A stretch of DNA of 32,000 bases from Candidatus Saccharimonadota bacterium (lineage in GTDB: Bacteria; Patescibacteriota; Gracilibacteria; BD1-5; UBA6164). Of this stretch, positions 1-32,000 are shown one piece after another. The stretch covers positions 150,001 to 182,000 of the forward strand of contig OY782392.1 of NCBI GenBank assembly GCA_963677765.1, given 5' to 3'. Numbering within the stretch: position 1 is the first letter of the stretch; every line of letters starts with the position of its first letter. The translations under genes were made by a program, and so were the position numbers. Under the pieces are notes generated by a model, which did not search any database, had not been told where the DNA came from, and saw only the letters and a list, made by a program, of their open reading frames with translations.

Positions 1-1165
1 AATAATAAGTAAAATGAGGATTTCATTTTTTATCAAAATATTGTAGTTCTATAAAATTTTTCTCTATTAATTTATTTATAGACTCCCTAATATAAGGTGA
101 AATACTTTTATCTTTTGAAATTTTTTCTATAAAAGATTTATGAATATTTTGTTCTTCTCATTCTATATCTAATTCTCATAAAATAGATTCTTGCATAGAA
201 TTATTTTGTTCTATTTCACTATTATATATATCAATCAATCTAGATTTTATTTTTTCATCATTAAATAAATCTTCTATATTATTAGAGTTTTCTAAATCTT
301 CTAAGTCTATAAAATAACTTTTTTTATCAAGTGAATCAAATATTTCTTTTATTTTTTCATCTTCTAATCATTCTATAAGATTTTTAGAGTCAGATTTAAA
401 TTTTTCAAATATTTTTTCTTTTAAACTATCTGATAAAATATTATTTTTTTTCAAATCATAATAAGATATAGTTTCCAAAAAATATTTAATCAAAGCTTTT
501 TTTGATCAATTATTTAAAGATTGAAGCAATATATCCAATCATTGTAAATCTATTTTTGAATTACTATTAAATATACTAAATAAATAAGTTATTTCTTCTT
601 GATTTAAAGTAGATAAATTTATATTTATTTCTCTTTCAAGCATAGTTTTTATTTCTTTTTTTGCAGAAAGAGCAGTGTTTTTATCTGAAAAGATATCATT
701 TTTAATCAAAAAATCTAATCTTTTATTTGGGTATTTCAATAAAGATATCAAAGTATTATTATCTAGTTTTGATAATGATGTATTTAAAATATTTTTTGAA
801 TTATCATCAAGAGTATATTCAAAATTATATTTTTCATTTAATTTTTTAAAGTTTGATTTTCTAGGTAGAGTTAGTTTTAATACCTCTGATTTTAATTGTG
901 AAGTTATAGTTTCAATTTTTGATTTTTTTAATCCACTCAGATTTAAAGATAAGTCTTTATACTCATCTCTAATGCTAACAAAAGAAAAATAATCAGTGTA
1001 AATTTTTGATATATCATATTCAGAAGAATCAAAAAAATCCATATTATCTTGAAGTTTTGATAATATAAAATCATTTTGAGATTTTGATAACAATGATGTA
1101 TCAATTGTTTTTTCTTTTTGAGAATTTTCTATAGAATTAGAACTATTTTTTCAAGAAAGAGACAT
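1..1165 (-). CDS. Hypothetical protein, C-terminus runs off the window (at least 388 codons); K/E/N/S/D/I-rich, glycine-poor, no recognisable family
   Basis: ATG at 1165-1163 (MSLSgKNSSNSIENSQKEKTIDTSLLSKSQNDF...). Same frame as the listed 539..1093 ORF. The apparent stop at 539-541 is TGA, and I found no in-frame TAA/TAG from 1165 down to base 2. Confidence 0.55.
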
Positions 1166-1307
1166 AGTATTTACTTAAAAAATATTTGTTTTATTATAAC
1201 ATTTTTTGAAAAAAAAAGCAAAAAATAAATAAATTAAAAATAGACTTTTAAATATTTTATATAAAATCAATACATAAAGATTAATTAAAAAATAACAATT
1301 TTTAAAA

Positions 1308-2729
1308 ATGTATATAATAATATGAATAATTGTTGCTATAGTTATGTTTTCTATAATTGTTTTGATACATGAATGGTGACATTTTGCAGCAGCAAGAAAA
1401 TTTTGAGTAAAAGTAGAAGAATTTTGATTATGAATACCCCCAAGAGCAAAAAAACTTTTTTATGATAAAAAAGGAACTCTTTTTAGTTTAAATTGGCTAC
1501 CTATATGAGGTTTTGTTAAACTAACATGAGAAACTCCTAATACTTTTAATGTATATAATAAAGAAAAAAAGCTATATAATAATTTTGATTTAGAAAAAGA
1601 CATAAAAGATTGAAAAGATATTTTTGATATAAAATGAGCTAAATTATCAAAAGTAGAAAAAGAAGAAATACTAAAATCTTTAGATGAAAACAATGCAGAA
1701 TATAATCTTGCTAATAAACCAAGTTGGCAACAAGCGATAATTATATTAGCCTGAGTATTTATGAATTTTGTATTAGCTTGGTTTATATTTTTTGTATTAT
1801 TTTTGATTTGAGTATCACCAATATGAATAAACTCAAAAATAGAAACTGATTTAGATTTAAAATTAATTCCGACTTATGAACAAGCAATAGAGAGATGATT
1901 AATCATAAAAAATCCATGATTAGTTCTATATCCTATAGAATGAAGTATAGCTGAAAAATCTTGATTAAAAGAATGAGATATTTTGTATGAAGTAGCTACT
2001 TGTAAATCAAAAATGCTAGATCATGTTATATGTGAATGATGAGAAGATGCTATATATACAAAAATACAAAAACCAGAACAAGTTATAGATATAGTAAATA
2101 AAAATGCTTGAAAAGATATAGCATTTTATATAAATGTAAATGTTTTAAATGAAGAAGATGCAAAAAAATATAATAGTCCATATTTATGATGAGCTTTTGT
2201 AAAAGTAAGTGTAGCAGAATCATGAAAAATATGAACATATTTATGAGAAAATGTAGAAATAAATGAAGAATACAAAATAAAATATTCTATCATATGAGCT
2301 TTTAGTAATTCTTTTATAGAAACAAAAAATCAAATAATTCTAACATTTAAATGATTATGAATTATTTTACAAAAAATATTTAATCCTGAAACTCCAGAAG
2401 AAAGACAAGAAGCAATTCAAAGTGTAAGTTGACCAATATGAATAGTTGATTTTATAAGTAAATCAATAACTGCTTGAGTTACATTTATAATGGTATTTGC
2501 TGCAATAATATCTATAAGTTTATGAGTTTTTAATCTATTACCTATACCTGCTCTTGATGGATGAAGATTTATTTTTATAACTATAAATTGATTAATAAAA
2601 AAAATATTTGGTAAAAAAGCTATAAGCGAAAAAGTAGAAGCAATAGTGCATTTTTGATTTTTTGTTCTATTAATTGCATTAAGTATAATAATAGCGTATA
2701 ATGATATAAATAAAATAATTGCTAATTAA
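1308..2729 (+). CDS. rseP: RseP-type M50 site-2 zinc metalloprotease (intramembrane)
   Basis: MYIIIgIIVAIVMFSIIVLIHEWgHFAAARKFgVKVEEFgLgIPPRAKKLFYDKKGTLFSLNWLPIgGFVKL. The HExxH motif sits in the first TM helix (cat gaa tgg TGA cat, 1368-1382). Later NKPSWQQAIIILAgVFMNF. TAA at 2727-2729. Confidence 0.85.
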
Positions 2730-2739
2730 TTTTAAATAT

Positions 2740-3342
2740 ATGGCTGAAAATATTTTAACAAATGCAAAAAAATATGTAAACAAGTTAATGATGCCTTTGG
2801 AGAATCATTATTACCATAGTTATGACCATGCTTTGGAAGTGATGAATAGAGCTATCTATTTATCAAAACAAGAATGATTAAGTAAAGAAGATGTCGAAAT
2901 GATGTGACTTGCTGGTATATTTCATGATTCATGATTTATAATACAATATGATAAAAATGAACCTATTTGAGCAAAAATAGCAAGGAATTATCTAAAAAGT
3001 GTATTATATCCAGAAGAAAGAATACAAAAAATTGAACAAATTATTCTAGCTACAGATCCAGATTATACAACTCCAAAAGATATTTATGAAGAAATAATAA
3101 AAGATTCTGATATGGATAATCTATGAAGAGATGATTTTATAGAAAAAAATAACAATATAAAAAAAGAGTTAGAAATAATAAAAAAAATAAAAATAAAAGA
3201 CCCAGATTGGAGACATGCATCAGTACAATTACTAAAAGAGTACAAATATAAAACAAATAGCCAAAGATATGAAAGAGATCATAAAAAAGTAGAAAATCTA
3301 AAAAAGATGCTACACGAATTAGATAGTGATGACAATATATAA
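2740..3342 (+). CDS. HD-domain metal-dependent phosphohydrolase
   Basis: MAENILTNAKKYVNKLMMPLENHYYHSYDHALEVMNRAIYLSKQEgLSKEDVEMMgLAGIFHDSgFI gives the H...HD signature, with a later DSDMDNLgRDDF. TAA at 3340-3342, followed by a terminator. Confidence 0.75.
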
Positions 3343-3436: not shown

Positions 3437-4624
3437 ATGTTTGAATTTAAATTTAATCTAGAAGCTCAAGATTGATATGCTAGAGCATGAGAATTTTTTA
3501 CTGAACATGGGAGTTTTGAAACTCCTATTTTTATGCCAGTATGAACAAAAGCAAGTGTAAAATGAATAAGTGTAGAAGACTTAGATGAAATGTGAGCACA
3601 AATAATACTAAACAATACATATCACTTATATTTGAGACCTGGTGATGAAGTAGTAAAACATTTCTGATGAGCTCATAAATTCCAAAACTACAATAAACCT
3701 ATACTTACTGACTCTTGATGATTTCAAGTTTTTTCTCTATGACAAACTTGATGAGAATGAAGCTTCAAAAATAATGAAAGTTTAGTAAAAATTACTGAAG
3801 AATGAGTTCATTTTAGAAGTTTTATTGATTGATCAAAACATTATTTTGATGCAGAAAATGTAATGGATATACAATCAAATATTTGAGCAGATATAATAAT
3901 GGCTTTTGATGAATGTGCACCTTGAAAATCTAGCAAACAATATGCAAGAGCTGCAATGGAAAGAACTCATAGGTGGGCTGAAAGATGTGTAAAAAGATGG
4001 AAAGAAAACAATCAAAAAAGATATGAAAACTGAGAATATATACAGGCATTATTCCCTATTGTTCAATGAGTAACATATGATGACTTAAGATTAGAAAGTA
4101 CAAAATTCATATGAGCACTTGATACACCAGGTATAGCTATCTGATGATTATCTGTTTGAGAACCAAAACTAGATATGTATAGAACTCTAGATACAATAAA
4201 AGAAGCTTTACCAAAAAATAAACCTAGATATCTTATGTGAGTATGAACTCCTGAAGATTTAATAGAAGCAATATATAGATGAGTTGATATGTTTGATTGT
4301 GTTTTACCTACTAGGTTATGAAGGCATTGAGTAGTTTTTACTTATAAATGAAATATAAAAGTAAAAAATGAAAAATACAAACTAGATAAATCACCTATAG
4401 ATGAAAAATGTAATTGTAAAGTTTGTAAAAACTATAGTAAATGATACTTAAGACATTTGATAGCAGAAAATGAAATGCTTTGAATGCAATTACTTAGTTA
4501 CCACAACCTATATTTTTTAATAAACTTAGCAAAAGAAGCAAGAGTTGCTATAAAAGAAAATAGATATAGTGAATTCAGAGATGAATTCTGGAAAAACTAT
4601 CCAAAAGAAGTGCTAAAAAAATAA
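3437..4624 (+). CDS. tgt: Queuine tRNA-ribosyltransferase (tRNA-guanine transglycosylase)
   Basis: MFEFKFNLEAQDgYARAgEFFTEHGSFETPIFMPVgTKASVK...LTDSggFQVFSL (gac tct TGA TGA ttt caa, 3710-3727). Zn site CNCKVCKNYSKgYLRHLIAENEMLgMQLLSYHNLYFL. TAA at 4622-4624. Confidence 0.92.
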
Positions 4625-4660
4625 ACTAAGATTTAAATCTTAGTTTATTTTTTATTTTAT
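4623..4660. terminator. Bidirectional hairpin terminator shared by tgt (+) and the convergent large membrane-protein gene (-)
   Basis: aaactaagat (4623-4632) / atcttagttt (4637-4646), a perfect 10-bp stem with an A-run upstream and a T-run downstream. The minus-strand stop at 4652-4654 lies in the T-tract. Confidence 0.75.
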
Positions 4661-7600
4661 TTCAAATAATGCTTTGTAAGTAGTTCATATAACATTACTT
4701 ATAGCAGCAGGAGTTCTTTCCTTGTCTTGGAAATATATTTTATAAGGTAATAAAAATGAATAACTTTCTTGATTTACTAAATCATTATCTAGTAAAAAAT
4801 CTATATATCTAGCACATTCATTTCTTTTGTTTCATCTAGGTATAACATCTCAGGCATCAGTATAGCTTTCATAATTTATTCCAGATAATAACATATATTC
4901 TTCCATATTTTGAGTTTCTTTATATCTCTCTAATCAAACTTCTAAACAAATACTATCTGTAGATATAAGATTTAAATCTTCTGATACAAAACTTGATAGA
5001 AGCTTTTCATATCTATTTGTTAAGTCCTTTGTTTCAGATTTATCAATAGTAGCAGCATTCAAATCAACCAATAAATATTTAATTCAAATAGATTTCATCC
5101 TAGAAATAGTTTCATTCAAATCATCAGAATAAATATAATCATTGAATTTGAACAATAAGTTATCCTCCCATAGTCTAGAATTGTTTTCAGAAATATAGTA
5201 TTTTAAAAATGTTCCTATTCTATAGATTTTTTCTTTATTTCTATATTCATCACTTGGGTTGGCTATATTTTTATATAGTCTTTCTTTTGATTTTTTAGCT
5301 TCAATCTTTATTTTTTTTGCTCTAGATTCACTTGAGTCAAGCTTTGAATCATCAGTTTTAATTATAGAATTCAAAATAGATAAAATATCTCATATTTCAA
5401 AGTTTAAAATATTTGGAGTAAGAGAAACAATATCTTCTGATATATATTCTTTTAAGAATTCTTGTTTTTTTGTATCATCTATATTTAGAGTATACAATAT
5501 ATCTAAATAATCACTATGATAAGCAAAAATAGCTTCATTGCTAGAAAATTGTCACACTTTGTATTGTTCATATCATCATGATTTTAAATTGTTTGATACG
5601 TTTGGAATTATAGAATTGAAAACATATATCAAAAATATTGATAAAAATATAAACGATATAAACATTTTTATAAAATAATCTTTTTGTCAGTATTCTTCTT
5701 GATTGTAAATAACTAAACTATAAGCAGAAAGTCATATCATCAATAAAAATGAAAAATACATAGTTATACCATACCAAACAATACCAAAACTAGATATCAT
5801 CCATAAAAAAGTATAAAGTGAAGCGAAAACAAGATTTAGTATAAAAATTTGATTTAATCTAGTATTTTTTAATGTAAATAACAAATAAATAGTAGGTACA
5901 AAAAATCATAAAAATATATAAAGATAACCTAGAGGTATATTTATAGAAGAAAAGAAATCTATAATTTTTCAACTTATATTTCTTGAACTAGACCAATTAT
6001 CAATAATTAATTGCCTTTGAGAGTTATCAAGCTCATTAGAATCTAGACTTTTTTCTAAATCTGCTATATCATTAATCTCAAAAACATAATAATTATTATA
6101 ATGATTTCATAATGATTTTATATATTCTATATCATTATCAGATAATGGGTTTACCATAAATGATATTTTTCAATCATAGTTTCAGTCTAGTATTTTTTGT
6201 TTTATCTCTTCATAAAATATTTTTAAACTAGATTGTTTTAATATATCAATCTCTTGTTTTAAAATTATATCTTTATAATAATCAAAATTCTCTAAATACT
6301 CACTACTGTACTTAGTAACTAAAGAATTTATTTCATCAGCAGTTCAGTTTTTACTATTTTGTTTTGCCTTGGTAGTAGCTTCATTCAAAATAAGCTCTCT
6401 AGTTTTTTTAACTAACTCATTTTCTCAAATAGTTTTTGCTAAATCATCATCACTTATATATTTTCAAAAATTTATTTGATATATATTTTTTGAAGAATCA
6501 ATAGAAAAAATACTATCATCTTTTGATAAAACTCATGAAAGACTTTGTACATTTATAGTTGATAAGTTTTCTATATTTATTTTTGTTGTTTTTGCAGGTA
6601 TATAAGATATAAACTGTATAAATGCTAGAACAACAAAAAATAATGGGAATAATGGATGTCTATATCTAAGAAAAATAAATACAAGAGGAAGTAATGCAAG
6701 AAATAAAAATCATATATCAGTATATTCTCATGACTGATTTTTTTGCATAGTAAGATTCCATGGCATATAAACATAATCCAATATACCATTACTATAACCA
6801 AAATATCTTAGTAAATCTTCATTTGTAGTTATAGAGTTTTCTTTTTTTCTTTCGTTAGAATAAAATTCTCTTATTTCAGTTAATTCTTCGTCTGTATATA
6901 TAGATGAAAAATCTGGAACAAAATTATCTCAAGTTCATTTTAAAATTTTATTAACACTTATGTTTGGATAAGATTCAATTATATTTTTGCTAAACCAAGG
7001 AGTAAGTATAAGTATAACTCAAGCTAAAAATATAAGTATTTCTTTTATATATCTAATAGAGTTTTGTCTTTTTAATACAAATCATATTCACAAAAACAAA
7101 ACACCTACAACTATAGAAACTCATCAAAATATATTTTCAAATCAAACTATATTATAAGGATTTATAACTACGTTCATCATTGACCATAGCCCAAATAATG
7201 TAAAAACTCAGAAAAACACAGATATATATCATACAAAACCTATAATAGATAATCTATTATAAGTAATTATAGCAAGAATAGATACTATAAAAAGTAATGC
7301 TGTAAACTTTACACTAAATGCAAATCAAGCTATCAATCATATAATAAATAAATATATTATAGATAATTTTTCTCAAGAATTATCTTTTTCATACAAGAAG
7401 TATTTTATAACAGAATACAAAGCTATAACTGTTATAAAAAACAATCCTGCATCTACTTTCATATCTTTGCTAGATAAAAAAGTAATCATAGGTAATGATA
7501 TAAAAATAGTTGATAATATTATTCCTAGATTTAGAAATGATTTTTTGTTTTGTTCTTTTGGTTTTAATAAGTCAGAAAATACTATATTTAAAACTAGAAA

Positions 7601-8488
7601 ACTTATAAACAAACCACTAACATTTATAAAAAATGCTTGAGTTGGATTAGAAAAAAGATAACCAATAGAAGTAAAAGCTTGCCAAGAATACATAGAAGTA
7701 AGAGATAATAACTCTCATGCTTCAGCTATAAGATGTGGATAGTTCATATATACACCCAAATCATCCCAACCTATAGGAAAAGGTCTAAATATAGTAACCA
7801 ATGCTACAGTTAAAACAAAAAATGATAACAAAGTAAAAAACTCTGTAGAAATAAGTTTTAAATAACTTCATTCTTTTATACTTAACTTGTATTCTTTTTC
7901 TAAAAAAGAATTACTCAAATCTATTATTTGTTTTCTAGAAAACCAAGTAAAAATAGCCAATATAGCAAAAACTATAAACAAGTTATAAAAACCTATAGCT
8001 GCAAAAATAACTATAGATGTAACAAATAAGCTAATACCTAATCATATAGACAATAAAAGAGAAAAACTATTAGATAGTTTATCAAAATCTGGAAGTCTTT
8101 CTAAAATAGATCTAGCAAAAGAAGTAGTTATTACAAAAATTACTATAGGTAAGATACTAAAAAGTAATACCTTAAAAAATAAGACAATAGCAGATATTAT
8201 AATAGTATCATTTAATCAAGCAGGACTAACTTTGAAAAAAAACAAACAAGTAACAAATAGATTCAAAACAAAATACCCTAATAAATGAGTATTTTTAAAA
8301 TAAGCTATTTCTTTTGAGTTACTCAATTGAATATATTTATATATAGCATATATTATTCATATAAGAAGCAAATAAAAAATATATCAATCAAAACTAGTTA
8401 GATGACCTCAATATACGAAGTAATAATTAAAAATTATAAATACTGAAAAAAGTAGTAAAACAAATAATTTTAGTAAGTAACTTATCAT
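4652..8488 (-). CDS. Very large (1278-codon) polytopic membrane protein; possible GT-C-fold (ArnT/PMT-like) glycosyltransferase with a large soluble C-terminal domain
   Basis: ATG at 8488-8486 (MISYLLKLFVLLLFSVFIIFNYYFVYgGHL...). The listed ORFs 7373..7693 and 5084..5374 lie in the same frame. I checked 7373 down to about 7080 codon by codon (only TGA, no TAA/TAG) and read the remainder continuously. Many hydrophobic segments; first-loop motif FRPFPIGWDDLGVYMNYP (about 7745-7790). Hydrophilic insert at about 6600-6000 and soluble tail at about 5600-4652. TAA at 4654-4652. Confidence 0.6.
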
Positions 8489-8629: not shown

Positions 8630-9763
8630 ATGGATTATTTTAAAAAAAGTTTAGAAATGCATGAACAAATGCAAGGTAAAATTGATTTTAATTCAAAAAT
8701 AGAAATAAACTCAAAAGATATATTATCAACAGCATATAGCCCATGAGTAGCAGAACCTTGTAAAGAAATACAAAAAGATAAAGAAAATGCCTACAAATAT
8801 ACTATAAAATCAAATACTATAGCAGTTATAAGTGATTGAAGTGCTGTTTTATGATTATGAAATATCTGAGCACTAGCTTCACTACCTGTTATGGAATGAA
8901 AATGTGTATTACTAAAAGAATTTGCTTGAGTTAATGCTTTTCCTATAGTACTAGATACTCAAGATACTGAGGAAATAATAAAAACAATAAAAAACATATC
9001 ACCAACTATATGATGAATAAATCTAGAAGATATAAGTGCTCCTAGATGTTTTGAAATAGAAGAAAGATTAAAAAAAGAATTAAATATACCAGTATTTCAT
9101 GATGATCAACACTGAACAGCTATAGTTACTTTGGCATGACTTATAAATTCGCTAAAAGTAGTTTGAAAAGAAAAAGAAAATGTAAAAATAGTTGTTAATT
9201 GACTATGAGCTGCTGGAACTGCGATAATAAAACTATTAAAAAACTATTGATTTGAAAACATAGTAGTATGTGATAGTAAATGAATAATATCAAAAGATAG
9301 AAAAGATTTAAATACTGAAAAAAATAAAATTCTAGAAATAACAAACATAGAAGATATAAAATGAAAATTAAGTGATGCTTTAGTTTGAGCTGATATATTT
9401 ATAGGAGTTAGTGTTGCATGAGCTCTTACAAAAGAAATGCTAAAAACTATGAAAAAAGACCCTATAATATTTGCAATGGCAAATCCTATTCCTGAAATAA
9501 TGCCAGAAGAAGCAATTGAAGCATGAGCAAAAATAATAGCGACTTGAAGAAGTGATTATCCAAATCAATTGAACAATGTACTAGTTTTTCCTTGATTATT
9601 TGCATGAGCTTTAAAAAATAGAGTAACTCAAATAACAGAAGAACACAAAATAAATGCAGCTATAAAATTGGCTGAATATGTAAAAAACCCAAGTGCTGAA
9701 GAAATAATACCAAGCCCTCTAGATAAAAATGTTGCCAATATAATAGCAAGTGTTATAAAATAA
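8630..9763 (+). CDS. NAD(P)-dependent malic enzyme (short, MaeB/YtsJ-like, no PTA domain)
   Basis: [23 protein letters not shown]...[11 protein letters not shown]...[47 protein letters not shown]...FHDDQHgTAIVTLAgLINSLK...VVNgLgAAGTAI. TAA at 9761-9763. Confidence 0.85.
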
Positions 9764-9850: not shown

Positions 9851-11368
9851 ATGATAGAACAATATAATTCATTAGCCGAAAAATTCATACGTAAAGGTTT
9901 TTGGCTTTATATCTTTTGATTTATAATATGACCTATATGATATATTATAAAAATAATTATATCATGAGAATTATCAGTAAGTGATGTATGAGTGCTTTAT
10001 GGGATCATAAGTCTTGTTACTCTAATATCTGCATATAATGACTTATGAATGACTGAGAGTCTAAAACATTTTTTACCAAAATATGTTACAGAAAAAGACT
10101 ATACAAAAGCAAAATCTATAATATTTTATGCACTTTTTGCTCAAGTGATTTCTTCACTAATAATTGCTAGTATTTTTTGGTTTTGATCTGATTTTTTGGC
10201 AAATAATTATTTCAAATCAGAAGCTGCAAGTGATGTATTAAAAGTATTTGCTTTTTTCTTTATATGAATAAATATATTTCAAACACTAAACAATTTTTTT
10301 ATAGCAGTTCAAGATACATTTAGCCACAAAATAACAGAACTCATAAGAATGATGTTTATACTTATTTTTGTAGTATCAATATTTTTTCTAGATTTATCTA
10401 GTTTATTAAATTTTAGTTTTTCATGGCTAGTATGATTATATGTATGAATACTAGTAACTATATATGTTTTTTATAAAAAATACTATAAAAAATATTTCAA
10501 AAATACAAAAATAGTTATAGATAAAAAAGAAATAAAAACAGTATCAAAATATGCCTTTATGGTTTTTATATGAGCATGAGCAGCTACTATTTTGTGACAA
10601 ATAGATATGCAAATGATTATATATATGCTTGGTACTACTGATGCTTGATACTATACAAACTACCTAAGTATAATATGAATTCCTTTTATAATAATAGCTC
10701 CTATTTTTGCTTTTTTGTTCCCTGTTTTTTCAGAGTTTCATAGCAAATGAGATCATAGCAAGATAAAAATAGTAAAAGATATATTTACAAAAAACTTTAT
10801 TTTGATTGCTATAATGTTTAATATATTTTTCTTTGTTTATTCTAATACTCTTACCTATACTTTGTTTGGAGAAAAATTTATAACATCTTGAGAGATTTTA
10901 AAATACTCTATTTTGTTACTTGTTTTTAATTTTTTACTACAAATAAACTTCAATATAATGGCTGGTATTTGAAAAGTAAAACAAAGGGTTCAAATAGTTT
11001 TTATAGCTATAGTTTTTAATTTTATAATGAACTTGATACTTATAAATACTATATGAGTTTATTGAGCTGCTCTTGCAACATGACTATGATGGATTCTTAT
11101 ATGGTTATTATCAGAAATATATTTATGAAAACAATATTTTATAAATTTTGATTATATTTCTATAATAAAAAATACTGTTATATTATGAGTTTTATGAACA
11201 CTTATATACAAATATATAATTCCCTACTTTTGAGAATTAAGTAGATTAGAATCATTATTTTTTCTTGCTATATCATTTTTTATATGGACTTGAGTATTTG
11301 TAGTATCAAATCTAAAAGATTTTAAGTTTTTTATACTAGAAATAAAAAAACTAAAAAAGACTAGATAA
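9851..11368 (+). CDS. MOP-superfamily polysaccharide/oligosaccharide flippase (Wzx/SpoVB-like), 505 codons
   Basis: MIEQYNSLAEKFIRKGFWLYIFgFIIgPIgYIIKIIISgELSVSDVgVLYGIISLVTLISAYNDLgMTESLKHFLPKY..., hydrophobic throughout. C-terminal GVYgAALATgLgWILIWLL resembles flippase termini. TAA at 11366-11368. Confidence 0.7.
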
Positions 11369-12197: not shown

Positions 12198-12248
12198 AAC
12201 AAAAAAGTTAAAAATTAATAATAAAAAATCTATTTATCTAGATTGCAT

Positions 12249-12281: not shown

Positions 12282-12310
12282 AAAAAATATTTTTTTATTT
12301 TAAAAAGTTA

Positions 12311-18142: not shown

Positions 18143-18143
18143 A

Positions 18144-20079: not shown

Positions 20080-20883
20080 TTAAGGAATTAATAAATAAAT
20101 TCTTTTTCAAAAAACTTTTCAAATAAAATATTTTAAAAATAAATAATTAAATCTAATAAAATTATAAAAATATAAATTATTTTTCTTATATTCTAATTTA
20201 TATTTTAGATATAGATATCTTGTTCAACTTAATTTTTTATTAAAATTAAAACTTATCTGATTTTCTGACTCATATTGTAAAGCAATAACCTTATTAATAT
20301 AATCAAAATTATAATATTTACTAATTTGAATCATTAAATCATATTCTTGATTTGATTCAAGTTTTTCATCAAAACTAACTTTTTCAAATACTTCTTTTTT
20401 TATAAGCATTTGTTGAGTACCACTTACACAATATCATTTCAATAAATCTTTATAAATATAACCTTGCTTTCTATTTTTTTTAACTTCATTTATATCGCTT
20501 CTTTTATACTCTACATCTCAAGTAACTACTCAAAGATTTTTTATATTAGAAGTTCTAAACTTTTCTAATTGTAATTCTATCTTTTCTGGTAATAGTTCAT
20601 CATCATCATCTAGAAAGTTGATATATTCACCTTTTGATAATTTTATTCAATTATTTCTACTAACACATGATCAAGAATTAATTTTATTTTTATAATACTT
20701 CAACCTAGAGTCATTTATATTTTCTACAACTTCTTGAGTATTATCAGTTGAGCAATCATCTATTATCAATATTTCTATATTTTTATAAGTTTGATTTAAG
20801 CATGATTCAATAGCTCTAGTTATATATTTCGCTCTATTATAGGTCGGTATTATTATAGTTACTAAGGGGGCTTTATTTTGCAT
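20080..20883 (-). CDS. GT2-family glycosyltransferase (267 codons if TGA 20224-20226 is read as Gly)
   Basis: MQNKAPLVTIIIPTYNRAKYITRAIESCLNQTYKNIEILIIDDCSTDNT...NSgSCVSRNNgIKLSKGEYINFLDDDDELLPEKIELQLEKF. Joins the listed ORFs 20671..20883 and 20224..20409; I checked every codon between them. The first TAA is at 20082-20080, 7 nt before the next start. Confidence 0.72.
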
Positions 20884-21694
20884 TTTTATACTCTAATATT
20901 TTAAATAACTTAAGTATTACACTATTTGGAAATATAGTAATTATTTTTAATAAGTTATGATAAATAAAACTATTTATATTAAAATACTTTTTTTTATAAA
21001 TATATTTACTTTGTATTTTTATAGTATTTTTTAGTGTTAGTTTGAGATGTTTACTTTTTCATTGTCATTCAAAAACTCTATATTTTATAAGATAATCATC
21101 TATATTTGTAAGCTTATATCACAAATCAAAAAATCTAAACCATAGTTCATAATCCTGACACCTTTCAAAATCTATATTATAATATCAAACTTTTAAAAGA
21201 TCTATTTTTCTAATCATAACTGAAGGTTGTGCAAAAGGAGATTTTTTTAATATAGAGCTTGAAACTTTTTTAAAATTATTTGGATATTTTCTATATCAAA
21301 TAACTTCTGAATTATAATCAATAATTTCAATAGATCATCATAATACTGAAATATCTTTATTTTTTTCTAAGAATTGATATTGTTTTAATAATCTATCTGG
21401 GTTACTAATATCATCTGCATCCATTATAGCTATATATTTTGAAGAATTATCTACTTTTTTAAATAACTCATTTCTTGTTTTTACAACTCAAATATTATAT
21501 TTATTTTTGTAAACTTTAACTCTACTATCTTTTTCAGAGTACTCTTTGCATATATTATATGTATTATCACTTGAACAATCATCTATTATTATAAATTCAT
21601 AATCAGAAAAAGTCTGAGATAATATACTAGATATAGCTTCTCAGACATATTTTTCAGTATTGTAAACAGGCATAACAACAGAAACCTTAAACAT
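20873..21694 (-). CDS. GT2-family glycosyltransferase (273 codons)
   Basis: MFKVSVVMPVYNTEKYVgEAISSILSQTFSDYEFIIIDDCSSDNTYNICKEYSEKDSRVKVYKNKYNIgVVKTRNELF...AIMDADDISNPDRLLKQYQFLEKN. Its TAA at 20875-20873 overlaps the next gene's start by 11 nt. Confidence 0.8.
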
Positions 21695-21780: not shown

Positions 21781-22725
21781 TTAAGACATAATTTTATAAA
21801 ACTTTTTTATTATATCATAACCTTCTTTATCTTTTACTTTTTCATAAATAGCTTTTATTGTTTCATATCATTCAGCATGCTTATTTTCAGATTTTAAAAT
21901 AGCTAAAGAATCTGATATATTATTTCATTTTCATAACAAAATTCATAAATATCTATTTCTAGAATTACCAAAACAAGTAGCTATAATATCTCAACCTAGT
22001 GAGTAATAAGAAAAATCTAAATTTTTATCTCATCAATACAATAATATTAATTCTTTCATCTCTTCAAAAAAATCTACCATATACATTCATATACTTGATT
22101 TATCATATCATTTTCACTCATAATATCATGATATTATTGCTAATATATTTTTTAAACTTCAATATAATTCAACATTTTTTATATTTTTTGTTATTTTTAT
22201 TTTTAAATTTTCTGATTCAAACAAATTTTTTATATAATTTCAAGTTTCTATATTTGTTATTCATAAATCAGCTCATAAAGGTTTTTTTTCTACTACTTCT
22301 TGAGCAACCATTCATCAAGACAAAATTCAGTAATCTATTTTTTTTGAATTTATTTTTGATTTTACTAAATCAAAAATTGTTTGATTAGTAGTTATATCTA
22401 TACCTTTTGCCAAATTAAGAATACAAACTCATTCTTTTAATTTTGGAGAAAGTTTTTCTAAAGTAACTCATATAAATTGAGCTGGTATAGCAATTATAAG
22501 TATATCTATTTCAGAAATAATATCATCATAATTATCTATAACTTCTATATTTTCTGGTAATTTATATCATTTAAAAAAATAAGGATTCTCTCTGGTTTTT
22601 ATAATACTAGAATAAATTTCATTATTTATTTCATATCAATAAAACTTTTTTTCTGGATTATTTTCTCAAATCAATTTATTTATTGCAAATCAAAAAGCTC
22701 ACAATCATAGAGTAAGTACTTTCAT
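21781..22725 (-). CDS. gpsA: NAD(P)H-dependent glycerol-3-phosphate dehydrogenase
   Basis: MKVLTLgLgAFgFAINKLIgENN...ILIIAIPAQFIgVTLEKL...ILNLAKGID...LGgDIIATCFGNSRNRYLgILLgKg. The standard-code track shows only an antisense ORF here. TAA at 21783-21781. Confidence 0.85.
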
Positions 22726-22819: not shown

Positions 22820-23065
22820 CTACTTCAAGATTCAAAAAAAACTTATAACAAGTTCATCATCTATTATTTCATACAAAAATCTATAATCTCATATTCTAAG
22901 TCTGTAACAAAAAGGTAGTCATTTCAATACTTTTATATCAAGATTATTTTCATATGGATCTATACTAAATATGGTAATAGCTTTTTCAAATTTATAAATT
23001 ATATCTTGTCATTTTTGTTTTTCTAAGAATTTTTGAACTGACTTTTCTAGTAATATTTTATACAT
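22820..23065 (-). CDS. RelE/ParE-family type II toxin (81 codons)
   Basis: MYKILLEKSVQKFLEKQKgQDIIYKFEKAITIFSIDPYENNLDIKVLKgLPFCYRLRIgDYRFLYEIIDDELVISFFgILK, with TAG at 22822-22820. The YRLRIGDYR...Y.I motif is typical of the family. Confidence 0.7.
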
Positions 23066-23336
23066 ATTATTTTAAGCTATTTAAAAAGCTAAAAGCCTCG
23101 ACTGAATCTTTTCAATGACTACTATTTTTATATGATTTAATATCATTACTTGTAGCTATTTCAGTATCAAAAGATACTTTTTTTAAAGAATTATATTCAT
23201 CAATACTTAGAAAAACACCTACAGGTTTATTTTGAGATAATATTATTCTCTTACCTATAATTTTTGTGTCTTTTACAACTTTTGAAGTATTATCTCTTAA
23301 TTCAGATATAGAGACAAAATTTTTTTCTGTTAACAT
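23058..23336 (-). CDS. Phd/YefM-like antitoxin (92 codons)
   Basis: ATG at 23336 (MLTEKNFVSISELRDNTSKVVKDTKIIGKRIILSQNKPVGVFLSIDEYNSLKK...). TGA at 23114-23112 is read through to TAA at 23060-23058, giving an 8-nt overlap with the toxin start. Confidence 0.6.
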
Positions 23337-23402: not shown

Positions 23403-24758
23403 TTAAAACCCTATAATAATTTTTGCTATACTAAAAAATATAAGTATTCAAAAAATATCGTTACTTGTTGTTATAAAAGGTCAAGTTGCCATTGCTGGAT
23501 TTATTCAGTATTTGTTTAGTATCAAAGGAACAAAAGTACCTATAAGACTAGCTAGTAATATAACACAAACAAGCGAAATACTAACAGCTGTTAAAACTAT
23601 ACTAGAAAAACCAAACACAAAATAACCAAATACAAGCAAAAGAACTGCCAAAAGCAATCAATTAACTACACTAATAGATAATTCTTTGAAAAATCTAGCA
23701 AATACCCCTCATTTCAAACTATTATTTGCTAATGCTTGTACAACCAAGGCACTAGATTGAACTCATACATTTCATGCCATCGCTGCAATAAGTGGTGTAA
23801 AGAAAAATAATTCTCAATTTTTTTCCATTGCTTCAGAAAATCATCACATTACAATAACTGCCATAAGACCTCAAAACAAAGCTAGTACAAGCCAAGGTAA
23901 ACGAGCTTTTACTAAATACCTAAGTTTATCTCATTCTTCTACATCATCCAAGATACCAGAAGCTAAGTTATAGTTTTCTTCTGCTGTATCTCTAACAAAG
24001 TCCATAACATCATCAACTGTAATACGACCTACTAGTTTTGTTTTATGATCGATTACAGGAATTGCTTCCATGTTATATTTTTCCATAAGATATGCTACTT
24101 CTGTTGCAGGAGTATCTACAGCTACATAATCTACTCTTTTTTTTCTAATTTCTTCTACTTTTTTATCTGCAGGAGCAGAAATCAAGTCTTTTAAACTAAC
24201 TCTTCAAATTAAAACCCCAGAATTATCAACTATATATACACTATGTATTCTATCTACTTGTTGAGCCTGTCTTCTTACTTCTTTCAAACACTCATCTATA
24301 GTCCAGTTTTTGTTTACTTCTACATATTCTTTTGCCATCAAAGCTCATGCAGTTCACTCTTCATATGATGCTAGTTCAGTAATCTCTCCTACATGTTGTT
24401 TATCTTTTATAAGCTTCAATACTTGATGTTTTTTCTCTTCATTATCTATCTCTCAAAGTATATCTGCAGCATCATCAGTATCCATTTCTTCTAGGATAAA
24501 TGCTAGATGATCAAGCATTATATTTTCTAAAATATCTTTTCTATCATCTGTTTCTAGTTCAGAAACAAATCTTGCAGCTTTTGCATAGCTAAGATTTTTA
24601 ACAACCAATAATAATTCATCTTTTGATAATTCATTGGCAATTTCTGCCAAATCTGCAGAGTGAATATTTTTCAAAAATTCTGCTATTTTTGATTCTATAG
24701 AATCATCTATTAGTTTTTTTAGATCATCTAACAATTGAGTATTTTTTTCAAAATCCAT
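23403..24758 (-). CDS. mgtE: Magnesium transporter MgtE
   Basis: N-domain MDFEKNTQLLDDLKKLIDDSIESKIAEFLKNIHSADLAEIANEL. CBS pair ...AIPVIDHKTKLVGRITVDDVMDFV. TM domain ...FFFTPLIAAMAgNVgVQSSALVVQALA...gINPAMATgPFITTSNDIFgILIFFSIAKIIIGF. Joins the listed ORFs 24453..24758 and 23931..24185; I checked codon by codon from 23931 down to TAA at 23405-23403. Confidence 0.9.
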
Positions 24759-24828: not shown

Positions 24829-26628
24829 TTAAAAAAAATTATATTTCTTATTTAGTATATAAAATACTAATATAGATATAACAACTATAAAAAACAAAAT
24901 AGAGTATAAAAAAAGTTTTTTCATATTGTTTATATTATTATCATTTTCTAAATCATAATTTTGAGTTTTTTCTATTTTTAAATCATTTGTTTCTTTTGAA
25001 TTATCAGATATTTTTTCAAATACTTCTTCATCTATATCTTCATCTTGTCATAGCTCATCAAAATTAATATTATCTTCGATAATTAATTCTTCTTCAATTA
25101 GTTCATCATTTTTTGATGATAAAAACTCTACTTCAAAATATGATTTAAATTCTCTAGAATAATTATCGTATACTTTTAAAGTAACATTGTATATTCATGG
25201 ATTGATATAATTAATATATCAAGGATTAACTCAATCATAAGTTTCTCAGTTTCAAAAATCCCAATAATAACTAGATATATTTCATATTGATTCACTAGCA
25301 TCAAAATTTACACTACAAGATTCATAACATATAAGTTTATTATTTAATAGTTCTTTATTTTGTCCTATTTTTCATTGAACTTGTATTTTTAGATTTACTT
25401 CACTATAGTTTTGTATATCTATTATTTCACTATTATCATCTTTATAGAAATCTTCTTTATAGTTATTATAATAACTAGAAGACAAACTAAATTTTTCTAT
25501 TATTTCTTTTAGTTCATTTATTTGGTTTTGATAGTCAGATATATTTTTTTCATTTGTATTATCCTCTTTATCTGTTTCACTGGAGTTTAATTCTTCATAT
25601 TTTCAAGTTACTTCTAATTTCAAAAAATCTCTATCCATATTTCAGTCTATATCTACAACTTCAAGCATGATATCATAATATCATTTTTCAAAAATAAGAG
25701 ATGATGGATCTTTTATACTAAAATAAGTTTCATTTGATAAATCCCAAAAATACTGCAAACCATCACCTGTTGATTCACTAGCTGTCAAATTTATACTACA
25801 ACTATCTACTCAATCACAAACTAATGTATCTCATTTGAACATTTTTCATGTAGTTAAATCTCATTGCAAAGTTATTTTTGCTTTTGTTTGTGTTTTTTTA
25901 TAAAGATTTCTAAAAATAAAATGAGTATTTTTACAATGATCACTATAGTTTTTATCACAAACTTCTAAAACTAACTCATGTTTTCATTCTCAAAAGTTCA
26001 GATGTTCAGGGTTACAACCATAAACAACAAAATCATCTCAGAAATCCCAATAACAAGTTAAGTTTTTATTATTAGTATCGTATTTAAAATTTACTAAACA
26101 TTCTTTTTTATAACAAAAATTATTTTCATCTAATCATGATTGGACTATTATATTTGGTTTATCAAATATTTCTTTTTCTGATTTTATATTACTATCATAT
26201 TTATAATAATTATTTTCATCATCTAAGTTATCATCATTATTTTGATTTGAAGAGTCATTATATTTTATAGCAAGATTATTTTCACTACTAGTATAAGAAA
26301 AAGTATCTAATAAACTATTATTAGAGTCATACAAATATAGTTCTTCATTTGTATTGTTTAGTATAATATTTGTTTGAGTTCTATAATATTTTTTTATTTG
26401 TCATCATGATAAATAATCCCCTGTTATATTATAAATTTTTCATCATTTATCAGATATAGAATATCAGTCCAAACTTTTTCAATTACTAGAATTGTTTTTT
26501 ATACTAATATATTCCATATTTAAATCATCATCAGTATTTGGTAAAACTTCATATATTATAAAGTTACTAAAACTAGTATTTATAAGGGAGAAAAACAATA
26601 AAAACACAAAAACAAATACTTTTTTCAT
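24829..26628 (-). CDS. Surface protein: signal peptide + lamin-tail (LTD) domain + three PKD-like domains + acidic linker + C-terminal TM anchor (599 codons)
   Basis: MKKVFVFVFLLFFSLINTSFSNFIIYEVLPNTDDDLNMEYISIKNNSSNgKSLDgYSISDKgg...EELYLYDSNNSLLDTFSY (LTD). PKD signatures CYWDFgDDFVVYGCNPEHLNFgEgKHELVLEVCD, YFWDLSNETYF...YYDIMLEVVDIDgN and YYWDFgNgETYDgVNPgYINYINPgIYNVTLKVYDN. Tail LFLYSILFFIVVISILVFYILNKKYNFF. TAA at 24831-24829. Confidence 0.75.
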
Positions 26629-26693: not shown

Positions 26694-26728
26694 TAAAAAA
26701 AGTAAGTTTTTTATCTAAAAAACTTACT
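26694..26728 (-). terminator. Terminator of the DUF2304-GT2 gene (stem overlaps its stop codon)
   Basis: agtaagtttttt (26701-26712) / aaaaaacttact (26717-26728), a 12-bp stem, with a T-tract on the minus-strand transcript. Confidence 0.7.
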
Positions 26729-27739
26729 CCATATAATTCTAAGTGCTATATTTATAGCATTTGAAGACTTTTGTCATTTTGAAATACTATATTTTGTATA
26801 TTTTATATTAACAGGAACTTCCCCTATTTTTATATTATTTTTGTTTAACTCATCTATCAATTCTGATGCATAAGCCATATTATCAATACTAAGTTTTATT
26901 TTTTTTATAGTATCTAATCTAAAAGCTCTCAATCAATTATGAGGATCTGTTAAATTTACCTGACTTATCATAACAGTAAAAAGTCTTCATAAAAACAAAG
27001 TTATTTTTCTTGTTTTACTTATATTAGTATTAGCTCATTTTAAAAACCTACTTCAAAATACTGCTCATAGATTTGATTGATTGTCTAACATGTCTACTAA
27101 CTTGTCTACATCATTTATATCATGTTGACCATCAGCATCAAATGTAATTATATATTCACAATCAATATATCTTCTAATGTATTCAAAACCAGTTTCCAAA
27201 GCTGAACCAGCTCATCTATTCATAAGATGATGAATAGAAATTATTTTATCACCATAAGATTCAAGTATCTTTTTTGTATCATCACTCGAACCATCATTTA
27301 CAACTAAAATATTTTTATAATTACTTAAAAGTACTTTATCTATAACTTCAGCTATAACTTCTGCTTCATTAAAAGCTCTTATTAATAATATTGATTTACA
27401 TTTTAATTCTTGTTTTGATATATTATTTAGAGATTGTTCTCTTACTAAGTTTGTTATAGAATCTTTATTTTCTACATGTTTTGTTAATAGTAATAAAACA
27501 AAATACAAAAGAAAAATAACAGCAGCATAAACCAAAACATCAGCTCATCTAGCTACTCAAAAAATACTTGCTATAGTATTTAATATTCAAGGAAAAAATG
27601 TAAAAGTAAGTAGACCTCATCATACTCATATAAAAACCAAAAAATGAAGAGCATTAAATCTTTGTTTTCTAGCTATGTCAAAAGCTATTATAAGTATAAT
27701 AACACCTGATATAATGAAGAAAAATTCTAATAGAGTCAT
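26711..27739 (-). CDS. Fusion of a DUF2304-like small membrane module with a GT2 (DPM1/polyprenol-phosphate glycosyltransferase-like) domain
   Basis: MTLLEFFFIISGVIILIIAFDIARKQRFNALHFLVFIgVggGLLTFTFFPgILNTIASIFgVARgADVLVYAAVIFLLYFVLLLLTKHVE (DUF2304 pattern), then ILLIRAFNEAEVIAEVIDKVLLSNYKNILVVNDGSSDDT...ITFDADGQHD...NLTDPHNgLRAF. TAA at 26713-26711. Confidence 0.75.
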
Positions 27740-27868: not shown

Positions 27869-29383
27869 ATGAAAATTAAAAATATAATAAAATATATATC
27901 TTACGTATTGATAGCAATTATAGTAATATATATGTTATTTTCTGTATTATCTCAAAATATAAAAACATCAGAAGAAATAAATGATAATAATAAAATATCT
28001 ATAGATGATAATGATAAAAAAATAGATATAAACAATGATATAAATCCAGATAATTATGAATCTTTAGAAGAATTCATTTGATATTTTAATTCTGGATCTG
28101 GTATTGTATTGGATGTAGATATGACAAAAGAAGTTTTTTACACAAAAAATACTAACTCTGATTGAACATATATTATTTCAAAATTTGATGATAGTCTTAT
28201 AAGTCATATAGATAATTCTAGTGAAAGTATAAAAAATAAAGCTATAATGGATATATATAATTCTTATAAAGAAGAAGCTTTCTTATTTTGAGAACCAAAT
28301 GATTCTAGATCTTGAGTTAGAATACTTGAAGAAGACGAATTAGATTCTAGTTTTCAAATGCATAATGATTTACTTATTCCATATAATTGAGAAAACTATT
28401 TTGAAAAATTAGATAGATTAGAATCAAAAGCAAACAAATCAATTGATGATTATAAACAACTATGATATCTTTATGATTTTTCTTGAGATTATCAAAAAGC
28501 AAATATATTAAAAAAAGAAAATTGAATTCAAAGTATAAATTACAAAGTAAGTTGAAAAGTATTTAATCAATGAGAACCTTTATCAAATGTAGAAATAGAA
28601 GTTTTAAATACATGAGAAAAAGTAACAACTGATGATAATTGATATTATGAAATAGAATTTGAAACTTATCCATTAACTAGAGCTAGATTTAGAGCTAGAA
28701 TTGATTGATTTTCAGACTGATATAATTGAGTATATATAATTTTTGATAGCAATAATCAAAGCAAAGAAGAATTAAATTTCAATCTTCATAAATATGATAC
28801 AAAAGAACTTATAAAACAAGAAGACTTAAGCAATTGAAAAATAAAAACTGTAGAATCTAGTATTTGAAATTCTTTTGATTTTGTAGAATGAGTAGTTATA
28901 GATAGTAACTGAGAAATTTATACAAAAGATTTTTATGCTTATATTTATGAGTTTGATAGACAAACTCCTGGTATGGAAAATTTCTTATGATTAGATAATT
29001 TTGATCCTGTTTATTGATATTCATGAGATATGATGGTAACTGCCTGAATGACTTATATGATGATGACAACTCTAGATTGAGAAGAATTATTTATAAGTAA
29101 GCAAAATCCAATTGTTACAAGACAACAAATAAACATGGATATACAATTCAACAATGATGAAGAATGAACAAATGCACTTACAAAAGAACAATTTGAATTA
29201 TTGTTAAAAAAATCTCAAGAACCATGATATAACATAGATAGAACTTTCTTAGAAGAAAGATGAATTAGCGGTCTATCTCCATGGTGGGTATTAAATAAAA
29301 CTAGATGAGTTTGGGAAAATAGACCTATAAAAATAATAAATAAAGATTGACTAAAAGAGTCACTTTATTATAATGTTGACTAA
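27869..29383 (+). CDS. N-terminally membrane-anchored extracytoplasmic protein with a carboxypeptidase-regulatory-like (CarboxypepD_reg) beta-sandwich segment; otherwise unknown
   Basis: MKIKNIIKYISYVLIAIIVIYMLFSVLSQ... extended through TGA 28079-28081. VSgKVFNQgEPLSNVEIEVLNTgEKVTTDDNgYYEIEF matches the G-x-V-x-D/N...G-x-P-L...V...TDxxGxY motif. TAA at 29381-29383. Confidence 0.62.
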
Positions 29384-29406: not shown

Positions 29407-29751
29407 ATGAATAAAACTTATATGGCTTCTGGTATAGCAGCTGCAGTAGTAGTTGTAGCTTGAGTAATTGCTTGGACAATGTCTTCTTCTGTTGCAAATG
29501 ATGACTATACTTGTTATAACTATTCTATGGTTCAAGGTTCATGTCAAATAAATGAAGCTAACTGTGGAGCATGGGAAAATGGTAAAAGAGTTTGTAATGG
29601 TACTAGAATAGATACTTATTCTAGAGGAAGTTCATATAGATGTGGTACTTTTGGTGGTGAAGACAGAGAAAGATATACAGTTAATGCTGCATGTAGTGTA
29701 GAACAAACTGATACAGTTTCTCCAGAAGTTATCGAAGGTTGAGTTGAATAA
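29407..29751 (+). CDS. Small (114-codon) membrane-anchored/secreted 6-Cys protein, unknown family
   Basis: MNKTYMASGIAAAVVVVAgVIAWTMSSSVANDDYTCYNYSMVQGSCQINEANCGAWENGKRVCNGTRIDTYSRGSSYRCGTFGGEDRERYTVNAACSVEQTDTVSPEVIEGgVE. TAA at 29749-29751, followed by a strong terminator. Confidence 0.6.
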
Positions 29752-29756
29752 TTTTT

Positions 29757-29795
29757 AAAAAACACTGAAAAAATCAGTGTTTTTTTTATTTTTTA
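29757..29795 (+). terminator. Rho-independent terminator after the small Cys-rich gene
   Basis: aacactga (29761-29768) / tcagtgtt (29774-29781) plus a T-tract at 29782-29788. Confidence 0.75.
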
Positions 29796-29847
29796 GAAAA
29801 TATATGTTAATATTTATTATATATTTATAATTATAAATTTTTAAAAA

Positions 29848-32000
29848 ATGAAAAAAATTATATTTTCTATCTTTTTATTCATAATTTTAGGTATTTCAAA
29901 TGCTCATGCAGCAAATAATTGAAACTGAAATTGAAATTGAGATACTTGAACATGAACTGTTGAAGAAACTGAAATTGTAAAAGTAATGTTTTTTGAACAA
30001 AATGCTGATTTATCAACATGAGAAAAAATAAATACAGAAGTAGTTGAATGAATAATTCAAGAAGATATATTTAATAACTTCATAAAAAAAAGTGTAAGTG
30101 TTTTTTTGTACTATAAAAAATGAGAAGAAGAAAAGCTTTTTAAGAGGGTTTTTGATGAAAACACTTCATGAGTAGTAACTATTAATGCTGTTATAAATGA
30201 AACAAAAACTATAACAAAACAAATAAAAGTTATTAGAATAAACAAACAAGCTCCTACTTGAGTATTAAAATATTCTCCTTCAAACAATACTTGGGTTAAT
30301 TCTTCAAAAACTGTAACTCTAGAATGAGCTGCTGCATGAGAAGACTGGTTAGTATGAAACTCTAAACCAAGTTATAAGTGTGAAGAACAAGGTTGATGTA
30401 TATGAACTTTGAGCATTCAAGACTCAGCTGGTAATGTTTTAGAGCTAGAATATAATATACAAAAAATAGATAAAATAAATCCTACTATACATGTAACTGC
30501 ATATCCTGAAATAGCTTCATGAAAACAAAAAATATGATATAGATGTGAAGATAATGGATGAAGTTGATGTAAAAATTGAACTGATGAAAAAATAGATTAT
30601 TTACCAACAGGTAGTTCAAAAATTTATTGTATAGAAGATAATGCTTGAAATTCTTCATGTCAAAAAGTAACAGCTGCAAATTCAGATAGAGATTATTCAG
30701 ATGATCATCTAGCTCATACAAATGATAAAAGAAAACTATTTTTAAAATGTATAGATAACTTTAGTTGATGTACTAGTCCTGATGTTATAGAATACAAATA
30801 CAAAAATATAGCTAGTACAAACCTAACTATAAAAGATAATGCTTGAAATTCATATACAAAAGTTTTTCAAATATCAAAAATAGATAAAGTAGATCCAACT
30901 GTAACAATAACTTCTCCAAATAGTTTTAAAGCTACTGATGATTCTAGAATAAATGTTAGTTTCAATGATAATGTTCCAGCAAGCCAAATAAATGATTATT
31001 CTGAAAGTTGAATAAAAGAAGCAAAATACAAATGGAATTCTAGTTGTAAATCATGAACCAATATAACTTGAACAAGTGTTATAAACTGAGAAAATATAAA
31101 CCATACAGTAGCATGAAATCATAAACTATATCTTTGTGCTATAGATAATGCTGGTAATATATGAGAAACTTCAAAAGATATAATTATATACCCTTGAGAC
31201 CTTGATTTATCTCAATCATCTGTATATGCTGATACTACAAATAATAAGTATGCAAATTTTAAAGATTATTACTTATATAATTTACAATTAAAAGACAAAT
31301 ATTGAAACCCAATATTTAACAAAGAAGCAACTGAAGTAAAACAAAAATGTGATGATTCTTCTTGTAAAACATTATTCTTGGATATGGTAGATACAACTCT
31401 AAAAGATGATGCATTAATAGAATATGATTTTGCAAACAAAACAAATACAAGTTGAATTCTAAATTTCAAAATTAAATCCTATACTCCATGAGTTTTCTCT
31501 GATAATTTTTATTTCAAACTAAGAGATTGGAATGATAGTTATGGTGATGTATGATTTCCAAAAGAATACTATTTAGAATCAAATGAAAATAGTTTTCTAA
31601 AACCTATTGAATGAAAAATAGAAATTTTAGAATGATGAAATATCCCAGAAATTTGAAAAGAACAAAAATATAAAATAAATTTAATAAATACTTGAAGTCT
31701 TACTAATTATAACTCTTGAGATTTAAAAGTAGAAAAAGATTCTATAATAAATCAAGTAGAATGACATTTCTGGAATGAGTTTAAGGAAGAAAAATGATAT
31801 TTTTGAAATGATTTATCTACAGATAATATTTGATTTGTATGAAAAATTGATGCAAATAAAAACATATTAAAATGACCTCAAATAAAAGCATATAATTTAG
31901 AAATAAAATATAATCTTTTTGGTCAAAATGTAAGATATTTATTAGATAATTTAGATTCTGGACAAAGCTGTGATTTAGAAACTCTTTGAGCAAAAATATT
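29848..32000 (+). CDS. Large secreted surface protein with tandem Ig-like DxAGN modules; 3' end outside the window (more than 717 codons)
   Basis: MKKIIFSIFLFIILGISNAHAANNgNgNgNgDTgTgTVEETE.... Four modules end in IQDSAGN, IEDNAgN, IKDNAgN and AIDNAGN, each followed by KIDK(I/V)(N/D)PT-type linkers. I read the frame continuously to 32000 with no TAA/TAG. Confidence 0.7.

Follow-up and report, generated by a model that had tools for sequence, protein, structure and literature searches.

The window analysed here (the whole 32,000-base stretch of contig OY782392.1 whose first lines stand above) comes, with a probability of about 97%, from the chromosome of a very AT-rich bacterium that belongs to the Gracilibacteria (BD1-5), a lineage of the Candidate Phyla Radiation, and reads UGA as glycine by NCBI translation table 25. 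In this DNA, UGA is a sense codon meaning glycine, UAA and UAG are the sole stop codons, and in evolution UGA interchanges with GGN codons and never with UGG. Four lines of evidence, namely alignments to proteins of known structure, codon-level comparison with relatives, replacements inside the window itself and proteome composition, together identify TGA as a glycine codon, and as the dominant one. The recoding is already known biology, textbook since 2013, and there is nothing new in the recoding itself. The value of the finding is practical and consists in correct annotation of the locus; its only forward-looking element is an observation on the codons CGG and CGA.

The window has a GC content of 22.6%. 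Under table 11 it contains no open reading frame (ORF) of 300 or more amino acids, and the longest one has 203; when only TAA and TAG count as stops, the number of such ORFs rises to 14, and the longest extends over 1287 codons. The 26 gene models built with these two stops (g01 to g26, in order of position) make 94.8% of the window coding. In-frame TGA is present in every one of them, to a total of 475, or 47 per 1000 codons, and the 24 complete genes end with TAA (23 genes) or TAG (one gene). Same-orientation neighbours are separated by -11, 1, 1, 7, 10 and 10 nt, the convergent genes g12 and g13 share 4 nt, and in 12 genes the TAA stop has a hairpin made of an A-tract, a stem and a T-tract on its 3' side (g03, g04/g05 shared, g06, g07/g08 shared, g09, g10, g11, g18, g19 and g25; z = -2.4 to -6.8), operon-internal genes being devoid of it. 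A first-pass annotation of this DNA, made from the letters alone, had described just such an arrangement of full-length, abutting genes (gaps from -11 to 10 nt) closed by terminator hairpins, and had warned that a standard-code annotation would shatter them; both statements hold for the 26 genes, with no ORF of at least 300 amino acids left under table 11.

The shortness of the longest table-11 ORF is also what would be seen if the standard code applied, the TGAs were true stops, and the region were a pseudogene graveyard or an artefact of assembly or sequencing. Against this stand the 475 in-frame TGAs in frames where neither TAA nor TAG occurs over as many as 1287 codons, Pfam matches that run from end to end, and the conservation of identical TGA positions in at least 20 independent assemblies, and we give the idea practically no credence.

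Gene boundaries are the same under tables 4 and 25, so that the choice between tryptophan and glycine needs other tests. Tryptophan is the meaning of UGA in Mycoplasmatales and in some insect endosymbionts, and the low GC content and abundant in-frame TGA of the window would suit such a code, since table-4 genomes are also very AT-rich and small. The public entry for tRNA-guanine transglycosylase Tgt of the window likewise has tryptophan at all 31 TGA sites, yet this reflects the choice of a pipeline and is not evidence. The top 120 protein matches of Tgt were set aside as circular, because all of them belong to the same recoded lineage and were translated with either G or W; chains from the PDB and codon-level alignments were used in their place.

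In the first of these tests, each TGA was masked as X, and the proteins were aligned to solved structures from standard-code organisms. Glycine is found opposite 70 of the 102 aligned TGA sites in four proteins, tryptophan opposite one and cysteine opposite two (binomial P ~1e-45; totals count one PDB chain per protein, and the glycine background in these chains is 8-10%). The individual fractions are 22/28 for Tgt, obtained both with PDB structure 10fa and with 1ozm from Z. mobilis, 19/30 for UDP-glucose 6-dehydrogenase Ugd (2y0e), 9/21 for glycerol-3-phosphate dehydrogenase GpsA (2pla, human GPD1L) and 20/23 for the malic enzyme (5cee). This bears out the proposal of the first-pass annotation that TGA occupies conserved glycine positions in unrelated families and does not stand for tryptophan. 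The motifs on which the proposal was built are indeed present (lower-case g denotes TGA). The Rossmann motif of Ugd, MKIgVIgTGYVg, reads ATG AAA ATT TGA GTA ATA TGA ACA GGT TAT GTA TGA, with TGA at 14336, 14345 and 14360; the TGA TGA pair of Tgt at 3716-3721 lies inside GAC TCT TGA TGA TTT CAA; and the motifs RIgDYR, WDFgDD, WDFgNgE and LgLgAFg are found in the translations. In the HEWgH motif of the RseP-type protease, CAT GAA TGG TGA CAT at 1368-1382, the codons TGG and TGA stand side by side within HExGH, which speaks against a tryptophan meaning of the latter.

The same alignments bear on selenocysteine, for which UGA is the codon in many bacteria, and on a dual meaning of UGA, mostly glycine and occasionally stop. 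A residual stop function is formally possible; all 24 complete genes, though, end at TAA or TAG, with 12 of these stops then followed by a terminator hairpin. As for selenocysteine, 47 UGA per 1000 codons are incompatible with it, the sites face glycine, with cysteine at only 2 of 102, and an Rfam scan of the window at gathering thresholds gave no match, selenocysteine insertion sequence (SECIS) elements included. We consider either version of this idea to be extremely improbable.

Codon-level comparison, which depends on no annotation, gives the same answer. When genes of the window (g02-g07 and g17) are paired with their orthologues in Gracilibacteria relatives (102 pairs, 38-86% identity), TGA of the window is opposite TGA 1586 times and opposite GGN 348 times, and TGG is absent from all 2415 aligned cells opposite window TGA. 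TGG of the window, in turn, is opposite TGG 252 times, with TGA outside the eight commonest codons at these positions. For Tgt alone, compared in 20 Gracilibacteria genomes, the corresponding counts are 454 TGA, 98 GGN and no TGG opposite window TGA, and 55 TGG opposite window TGG. Two further genomes, with the non-CPR labels Thermoanaerobacterales and Bacteroidales, have Tgt genes without in-frame TGA, and these show GGN at 40 of 53 aligned TGA sites.

Exchange of TGA with GGN can be seen even within the window. The paralogues g08 and g10, called A and C in the first-pass annotation, are identical at 99 of 226 aligned residues and contain five GGT:TGA pairs, two TGA:TGA pairs and none with TGG; the pair of segments singled out earlier, with minus-strand GGT at 11814-11816 and 11805-11807 versus TGA GAA GGA TGA at 13836-13847, reads as described. 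The surface protein g26 contains four modules with the motif D[NS]A-Gly-N. The interchange reported for three of them, GAT AAT GCT TGA AAT at 30637 and 30835 versus GAT AAT GCT GGT AAT at 31144, is there in the sequence, and a fourth copy, GAC TCA GCT GGT AAT at 30421, again has GGT.

When the proteins were rescanned with Pfam and TGA was translated as tryptophan in place of glycine, the score fell in all ten proteins: from 514.1 to 415.1 bits for TGT, from 170.5 to 120.2 for Peptidase_M50, from 69.8 to 33.6 for Hexapep in g13, from 103.2 to 75.7 for MgtE in g21, and, in GpsA, from 96.4 to 64.3 for the N domain and from 85.0 to 35.4 for the C domain. This scoring is inconclusive when taken alone, as tryptophan at a random position costs more than glycine. 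With glycine, the Pfam matches of Tgt, M50, Ugd, GpsA, MgtE and the malic enzyme extend end to end, and the end-to-end alignment under table 25 that the first-pass annotation had expected of Ugd, Tgt, MgtE and GpsA is thereby observed. The comparison of translation tables that it had proposed comes out as 0 versus 14 ORFs of at least 300 amino acids and as Pfam scores higher with glycine than with tryptophan.

Composition completes the argument. TGA accounts for 475 of 600 glycine codons (79%), and GGC is never used. With TGA read as glycine the predicted proteome contains 5.9% glycine and 0.7% tryptophan; with tryptophan it would contain 1.2% and 5.4%, respectively, and the GGN codons alone supply 1.2% glycine. 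Only the glycine reading yields a normal proteome composition. Given the single tryptophan among the 102 sites with PDB homologues, the absence of TGG from the 2415 orthologue cells as against 252 matches of TGG with TGG, the uniform decrease of Pfam scores and the distorted composition, a tryptophan meaning is very unlikely.

The way in which UGA is decoded as glycine can be proposed from what is reported for the lineage. Use of UGA for glycine in Absconditabacteria and Gracilibacteria, together with a tRNA-Gly(UCA) and loss of release factor 2, is documented in PMC8629427 and in the gTranslate preprint; the identity elements of this tRNA are G1:C72, C2:G71, G3:C70 and U73 (PMC8629427). For the table 25 code, PMC8629427 cites Campbell et al. 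2013 and Rinke et al. 2013. Proteomics of a BD1-5/SN-2 bacterium gave 40 glycine versus 1 tryptophan peptides at UGA at the highest stringency (PMC4032931). By analogy, a tRNA-Gly with the anticodon UCA would read UGA in the organism studied here, the loss of release factor 2 would abolish termination at this codon, and AT mutational pressure would then drive the replacement of GGN by UGA.

Several observations weigh against our interpretation, or at least lend it no help. About 30% of the TGA sites are opposite residues other than glycine in distant homologues, chiefly Ala, Ser, Lys and Asn; non-glycine residues of this kind are expected at variable positions. ARAGORN finds no tRNA gene in the window, and tRNA(UCA) in none of 55 related loci (25 genome loci around Tgt and 30 metagenome loci around RseP), where the 25 Tgt loci hold no tRNA whatever and most of the 30 RseP loci come from distant standard-code bacteria. 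The gene prfB is not among the 26 genes of the window, a 32-kb segment being unable to show its genome-wide absence. The peptide proof was obtained with another BD1-5 bacterium and not with the organism of the window. Finally, the lineage call is based on record labels of the nearest neighbours and not on a phylogeny.

These labels are largely concordant. Where the best protein matches of Tgt carry a name, it reads 'tRNA guanosine(34) transglycosylase Tgt [Candidatus Gracilibacteria bacterium]', with one match labelled Candidatus Altimarinota. The closest species-representative loci, with 65-78% identity in Tgt, are mostly titled Candidatus Gracilibacteria, oral GN02-872 included, and some bear the title 'Patescibacteria group' or, in third-party assemblies of ENA, 'Candidatus Peribacteria'; GC content is 21-28% in all the closest loci, and their Tgt genes contain 22-31 in-frame TGA. 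The assignment to Gracilibacteria made in the first-pass annotation is in line with this, the nearest relatives being metagenome-assembled genomes (MAGs) labelled Candidatus Gracilibacteria. The six ENA third-party MAGs named 'uncultured Candidatus Peribacteria bacterium' (L004, L011, L012, L014, L016 and L020) have 24-31 in-frame TGA in Tgt, much as the loci titled Gracilibacteria do, and the Peribacteria title of these records looks like a taxonomy-mapping artefact. A public protein, P0001, equals Tgt of the window outside the TGA sites and is encoded on a contig of 1,048,296 bp at NCBI/ENA; the genome is thus available in public databases already and is probably close to complete.

The gene content of the window is that of cellular housekeeping and cell-envelope biosynthesis, and not of a phage. 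The features are as follows.

g01, 2..1165, minus strand: partial gene, 3' end beyond the window start; 7 TGA; without Pfam match
g02, 1308..2729, plus strand: RseP-type site-2 protease (Peptidase_M50); 35 TGA; HEWgH at 1368-1382; Pfam profile covered at 2-220/221
g03, 2740..3342, plus strand: HD-domain protein; 5 TGA; terminator hairpin 3' of the stop
g04, 3437..4624, plus strand: tRNA-guanine transglycosylase Tgt; 31 TGA; DSggFQ at 3710-3727; Pfam TGT covered at 2-356/357
g05, 4652..8488, minus strand: multi-pass membrane protein of 1278 aa; 42 TGA; without Pfam match
g06, 8630..9763, plus strand: malic enzyme; 23 TGA; Pfam malic and Malic_M
g07, 9851..11368, plus strand: Polysacc_synt/MurJ-like flippase; 27 TGA
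Hairpin, 11353..11383, no strand: apparent bidirectional terminator with a 14-bp stem, between convergent g07 and g08
g08, 11385..12197, minus strand: secreted Kazal-domain protein (paralogue A); 4 TGA, 11 GGN
g09, 12340..13062, minus strand: secreted acidic protein; 4 TGA
g10, 13182..14168, minus strand: paralogue C of g08; 12 TGA, five of them facing GGT in g08
g11, 14327..15643, plus strand: UDP-glucose 6-dehydrogenase Ugd; 31 TGA; Rossmann motif MKIgVIgTGYVg; three Pfam domains end to end
g12, 15713..16960, plus strand: Polysacc_synt flippase; 22 TGA
g13, 16957..17400, minus strand: hexapeptide-repeat acyltransferase; 11 TGA, at glycine positions of the repeat
g14, 17411..18142, minus strand: FkbM-type methyltransferase; 10 TGA
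g15, 18144..20072, minus strand: 642-aa protein with a GT2 glycosyltransferase domain; 30 TGA
g16, 20080..20883, minus strand: GT2 glycosyltransferase; 8 TGA
g17, 20873..21694, minus strand: GT2 glycosyltransferase; 9 TGA; 11-nt overlap with g16
g18, 21781..22725, minus strand: glycerol-3-phosphate dehydrogenase GpsA; 26 TGA; motif LgLgAFg; both Pfam domains end to end
g19, 22820..23065, minus strand: ParE/RelE-type toxin; 4 TGA
g20, 23067..23336, minus strand: Phd/YefM antitoxin; 1 TGA
g21, 23403..24758, minus strand: MgtE magnesium transporter; 16 TGA; Pfam MgtE_N, CBS and MgtE
g22, 24829..26628, minus strand: surface protein with LTD and PKD domains; 25 TGA; motifs WDFgDD and WDFgNgE
g23, 26711..27739, minus strand: DUF2304 and GT2 glycosyltransferase; 13 TGA
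g24, 27869..29383, plus strand: protein with a CarboxypepD_reg-like domain; 29 TGA
g25, 29407..29751, plus strand: small Cys-rich protein, membrane-anchored or secreted; 2 TGA, 10 GGN; terminator at 29757-29785
g26, 29848..31998, plus strand: large surface protein, partial; 48 TGA; four D[NS]A-Gly-N modules that match no Pfam family

Stop-codon-recoded phages exist, and the toxin-antitoxin pair and the surface-protein genes of the list might be taken for cargo of a phage or another mobile element with a recoded stop codon. The other genes tell a different story, since Tgt, RseP, GpsA, MgtE, the malic enzyme, Ugd, the glycosyltransferases and the flippases are housekeeping or envelope genes; an identical Tgt resides on the contig of 1,048,296 bp, the block g02-g07 is syntenic in Gracilibacteria MAGs, and no phage hallmark genes are seen among the genes of the window. 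A mobile origin of the segment is thus highly improbable, and a chromosomal segment of a Gracilibacteria bacterium is the reading we retain.

Several features of individual genes deserve mention. The multi-pass membrane protein g05 is kept beside Tgt in 13 Gracilibacteria loci. The three tandem genes g08, g09 and g10 (11385-14168) encode proteins with signal peptides; g08 and g10 have a common Cys-rich N-terminal module, and in g08 there is a protease-inhibitor motif of the Kazal type, unusual in a bacterium (Pfam Kazal_1, 37.7 bits). The large surface protein g22 has a lamin-tail domain as well as PKD domains, and the N-terminal start of g26 is a run of (Asn-Gly)4 and (Thr-Gly)2 in which every glycine is encoded by TGA. 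GGN is preferred in g08 and g25, which encode small Cys-rich proteins and where the share of TGA is 0.27 and 0.17, compared with 0.79 overall (P ~1e-5); at 34.8%, the GC content of g25 is also the highest. High expression or recent import are possible reasons for the GGN-rich usage of these two genes. A search for homologues of g25 among 5.8 billion proteins, aimed at import from a standard-code organism, returned only the protein itself and one relative with 68% identity.

At the DNA level, one perfect hairpin with an A-tract, a stem and a T-tract is located between each of two convergent pairs, g04/g05 (4625-4651) and g07/g08 (11353-11383). Both appear to be bidirectional terminators, and the stop codon of g07 falls within the stem of the second one. 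CpG is strongly depleted across the window, with 53 occurrences observed and 408 expected from base composition (ratio 0.13). A promoter scan of the window found promoter-like sites to be no commoner than in shuffled sequences, which permits no statement on promoters.

Correct decoding has consequences for public data. The public protein collection has tryptophan at 31 of 31 TGA sites in Tgt of the window (P0001) and at 2 of 2 in g25 (P0124), and in the 120 best Tgt matches the columns of these TGA sites have W in 2371 cells, about two thirds, versus 975 with G, from which it looks as if most public predicted proteins of the lineage are mistranslated with table 4. Gene callers that compare coding density alone choose table 4 and mistranslate the proteins in this manner, as with the public Tgt entry. 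Annotation with table 11 shatters every gene of the locus, and annotation with table 4 makes tryptophan about 5% of the residues, catalytic and nucleotide-binding glycines included. Homology searches, structure predictions and family profiles that use mistranslated entries inherit the error.

Not one of the 10,090 in-frame codons of the window is CGG, CGA or CGC, so that table 25 still translates it correctly. Orthologues of g02, g04, g05 and g07 in the relatives L014, L017, L018 and L019 contain seven CGG codons, each of them opposite TGG of the window (chance ~1e-15). A lone CGA, seen in a relative, is opposite AGA. Codetta predicts reassignment of CGA and CGG to tryptophan in Absconditabacteria and some Gracilibacteria, a computational prediction (PMC8629427), and the CGG codons of the relatives, aligned with tryptophan codons of the window, would match the prediction for some Gracilibacteria. 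Tentatively, and with rather more doubt than conviction, we suggest that the code of the organism may go beyond table 25, and that a second reassignment, by which CGG has been captured by tryptophan in sister lineages, could be under way in Gracilibacteria, with the window at its 'unassigned codon' intermediate stage.

Among known codes, the one with CGA and CGG read as tryptophan may extend to the relatives, whose CGG stands at tryptophan codons of the window; the window itself is devoid of CGG, CGA and CGC. Table 4, as used by Mycoplasmatales, Zinderia, Nasuia and Hodgkinia among others, is likewise a case in which UGA, in a reduced and AT-rich genome, has turned from a stop into a sense codon; the amino acid in the window, however, is glycine and not tryptophan. 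The closest counterpart is table 25 itself, known from SR1 and Gracilibacteria, with which the window shares UGA at glycine positions, UAA and UAG as stops, AT-richness, an apparently small genome and kin labelled Gracilibacteria, and from which it differs only in degree, UGA having taken over 79% of the glycine codons and GGC being absent.

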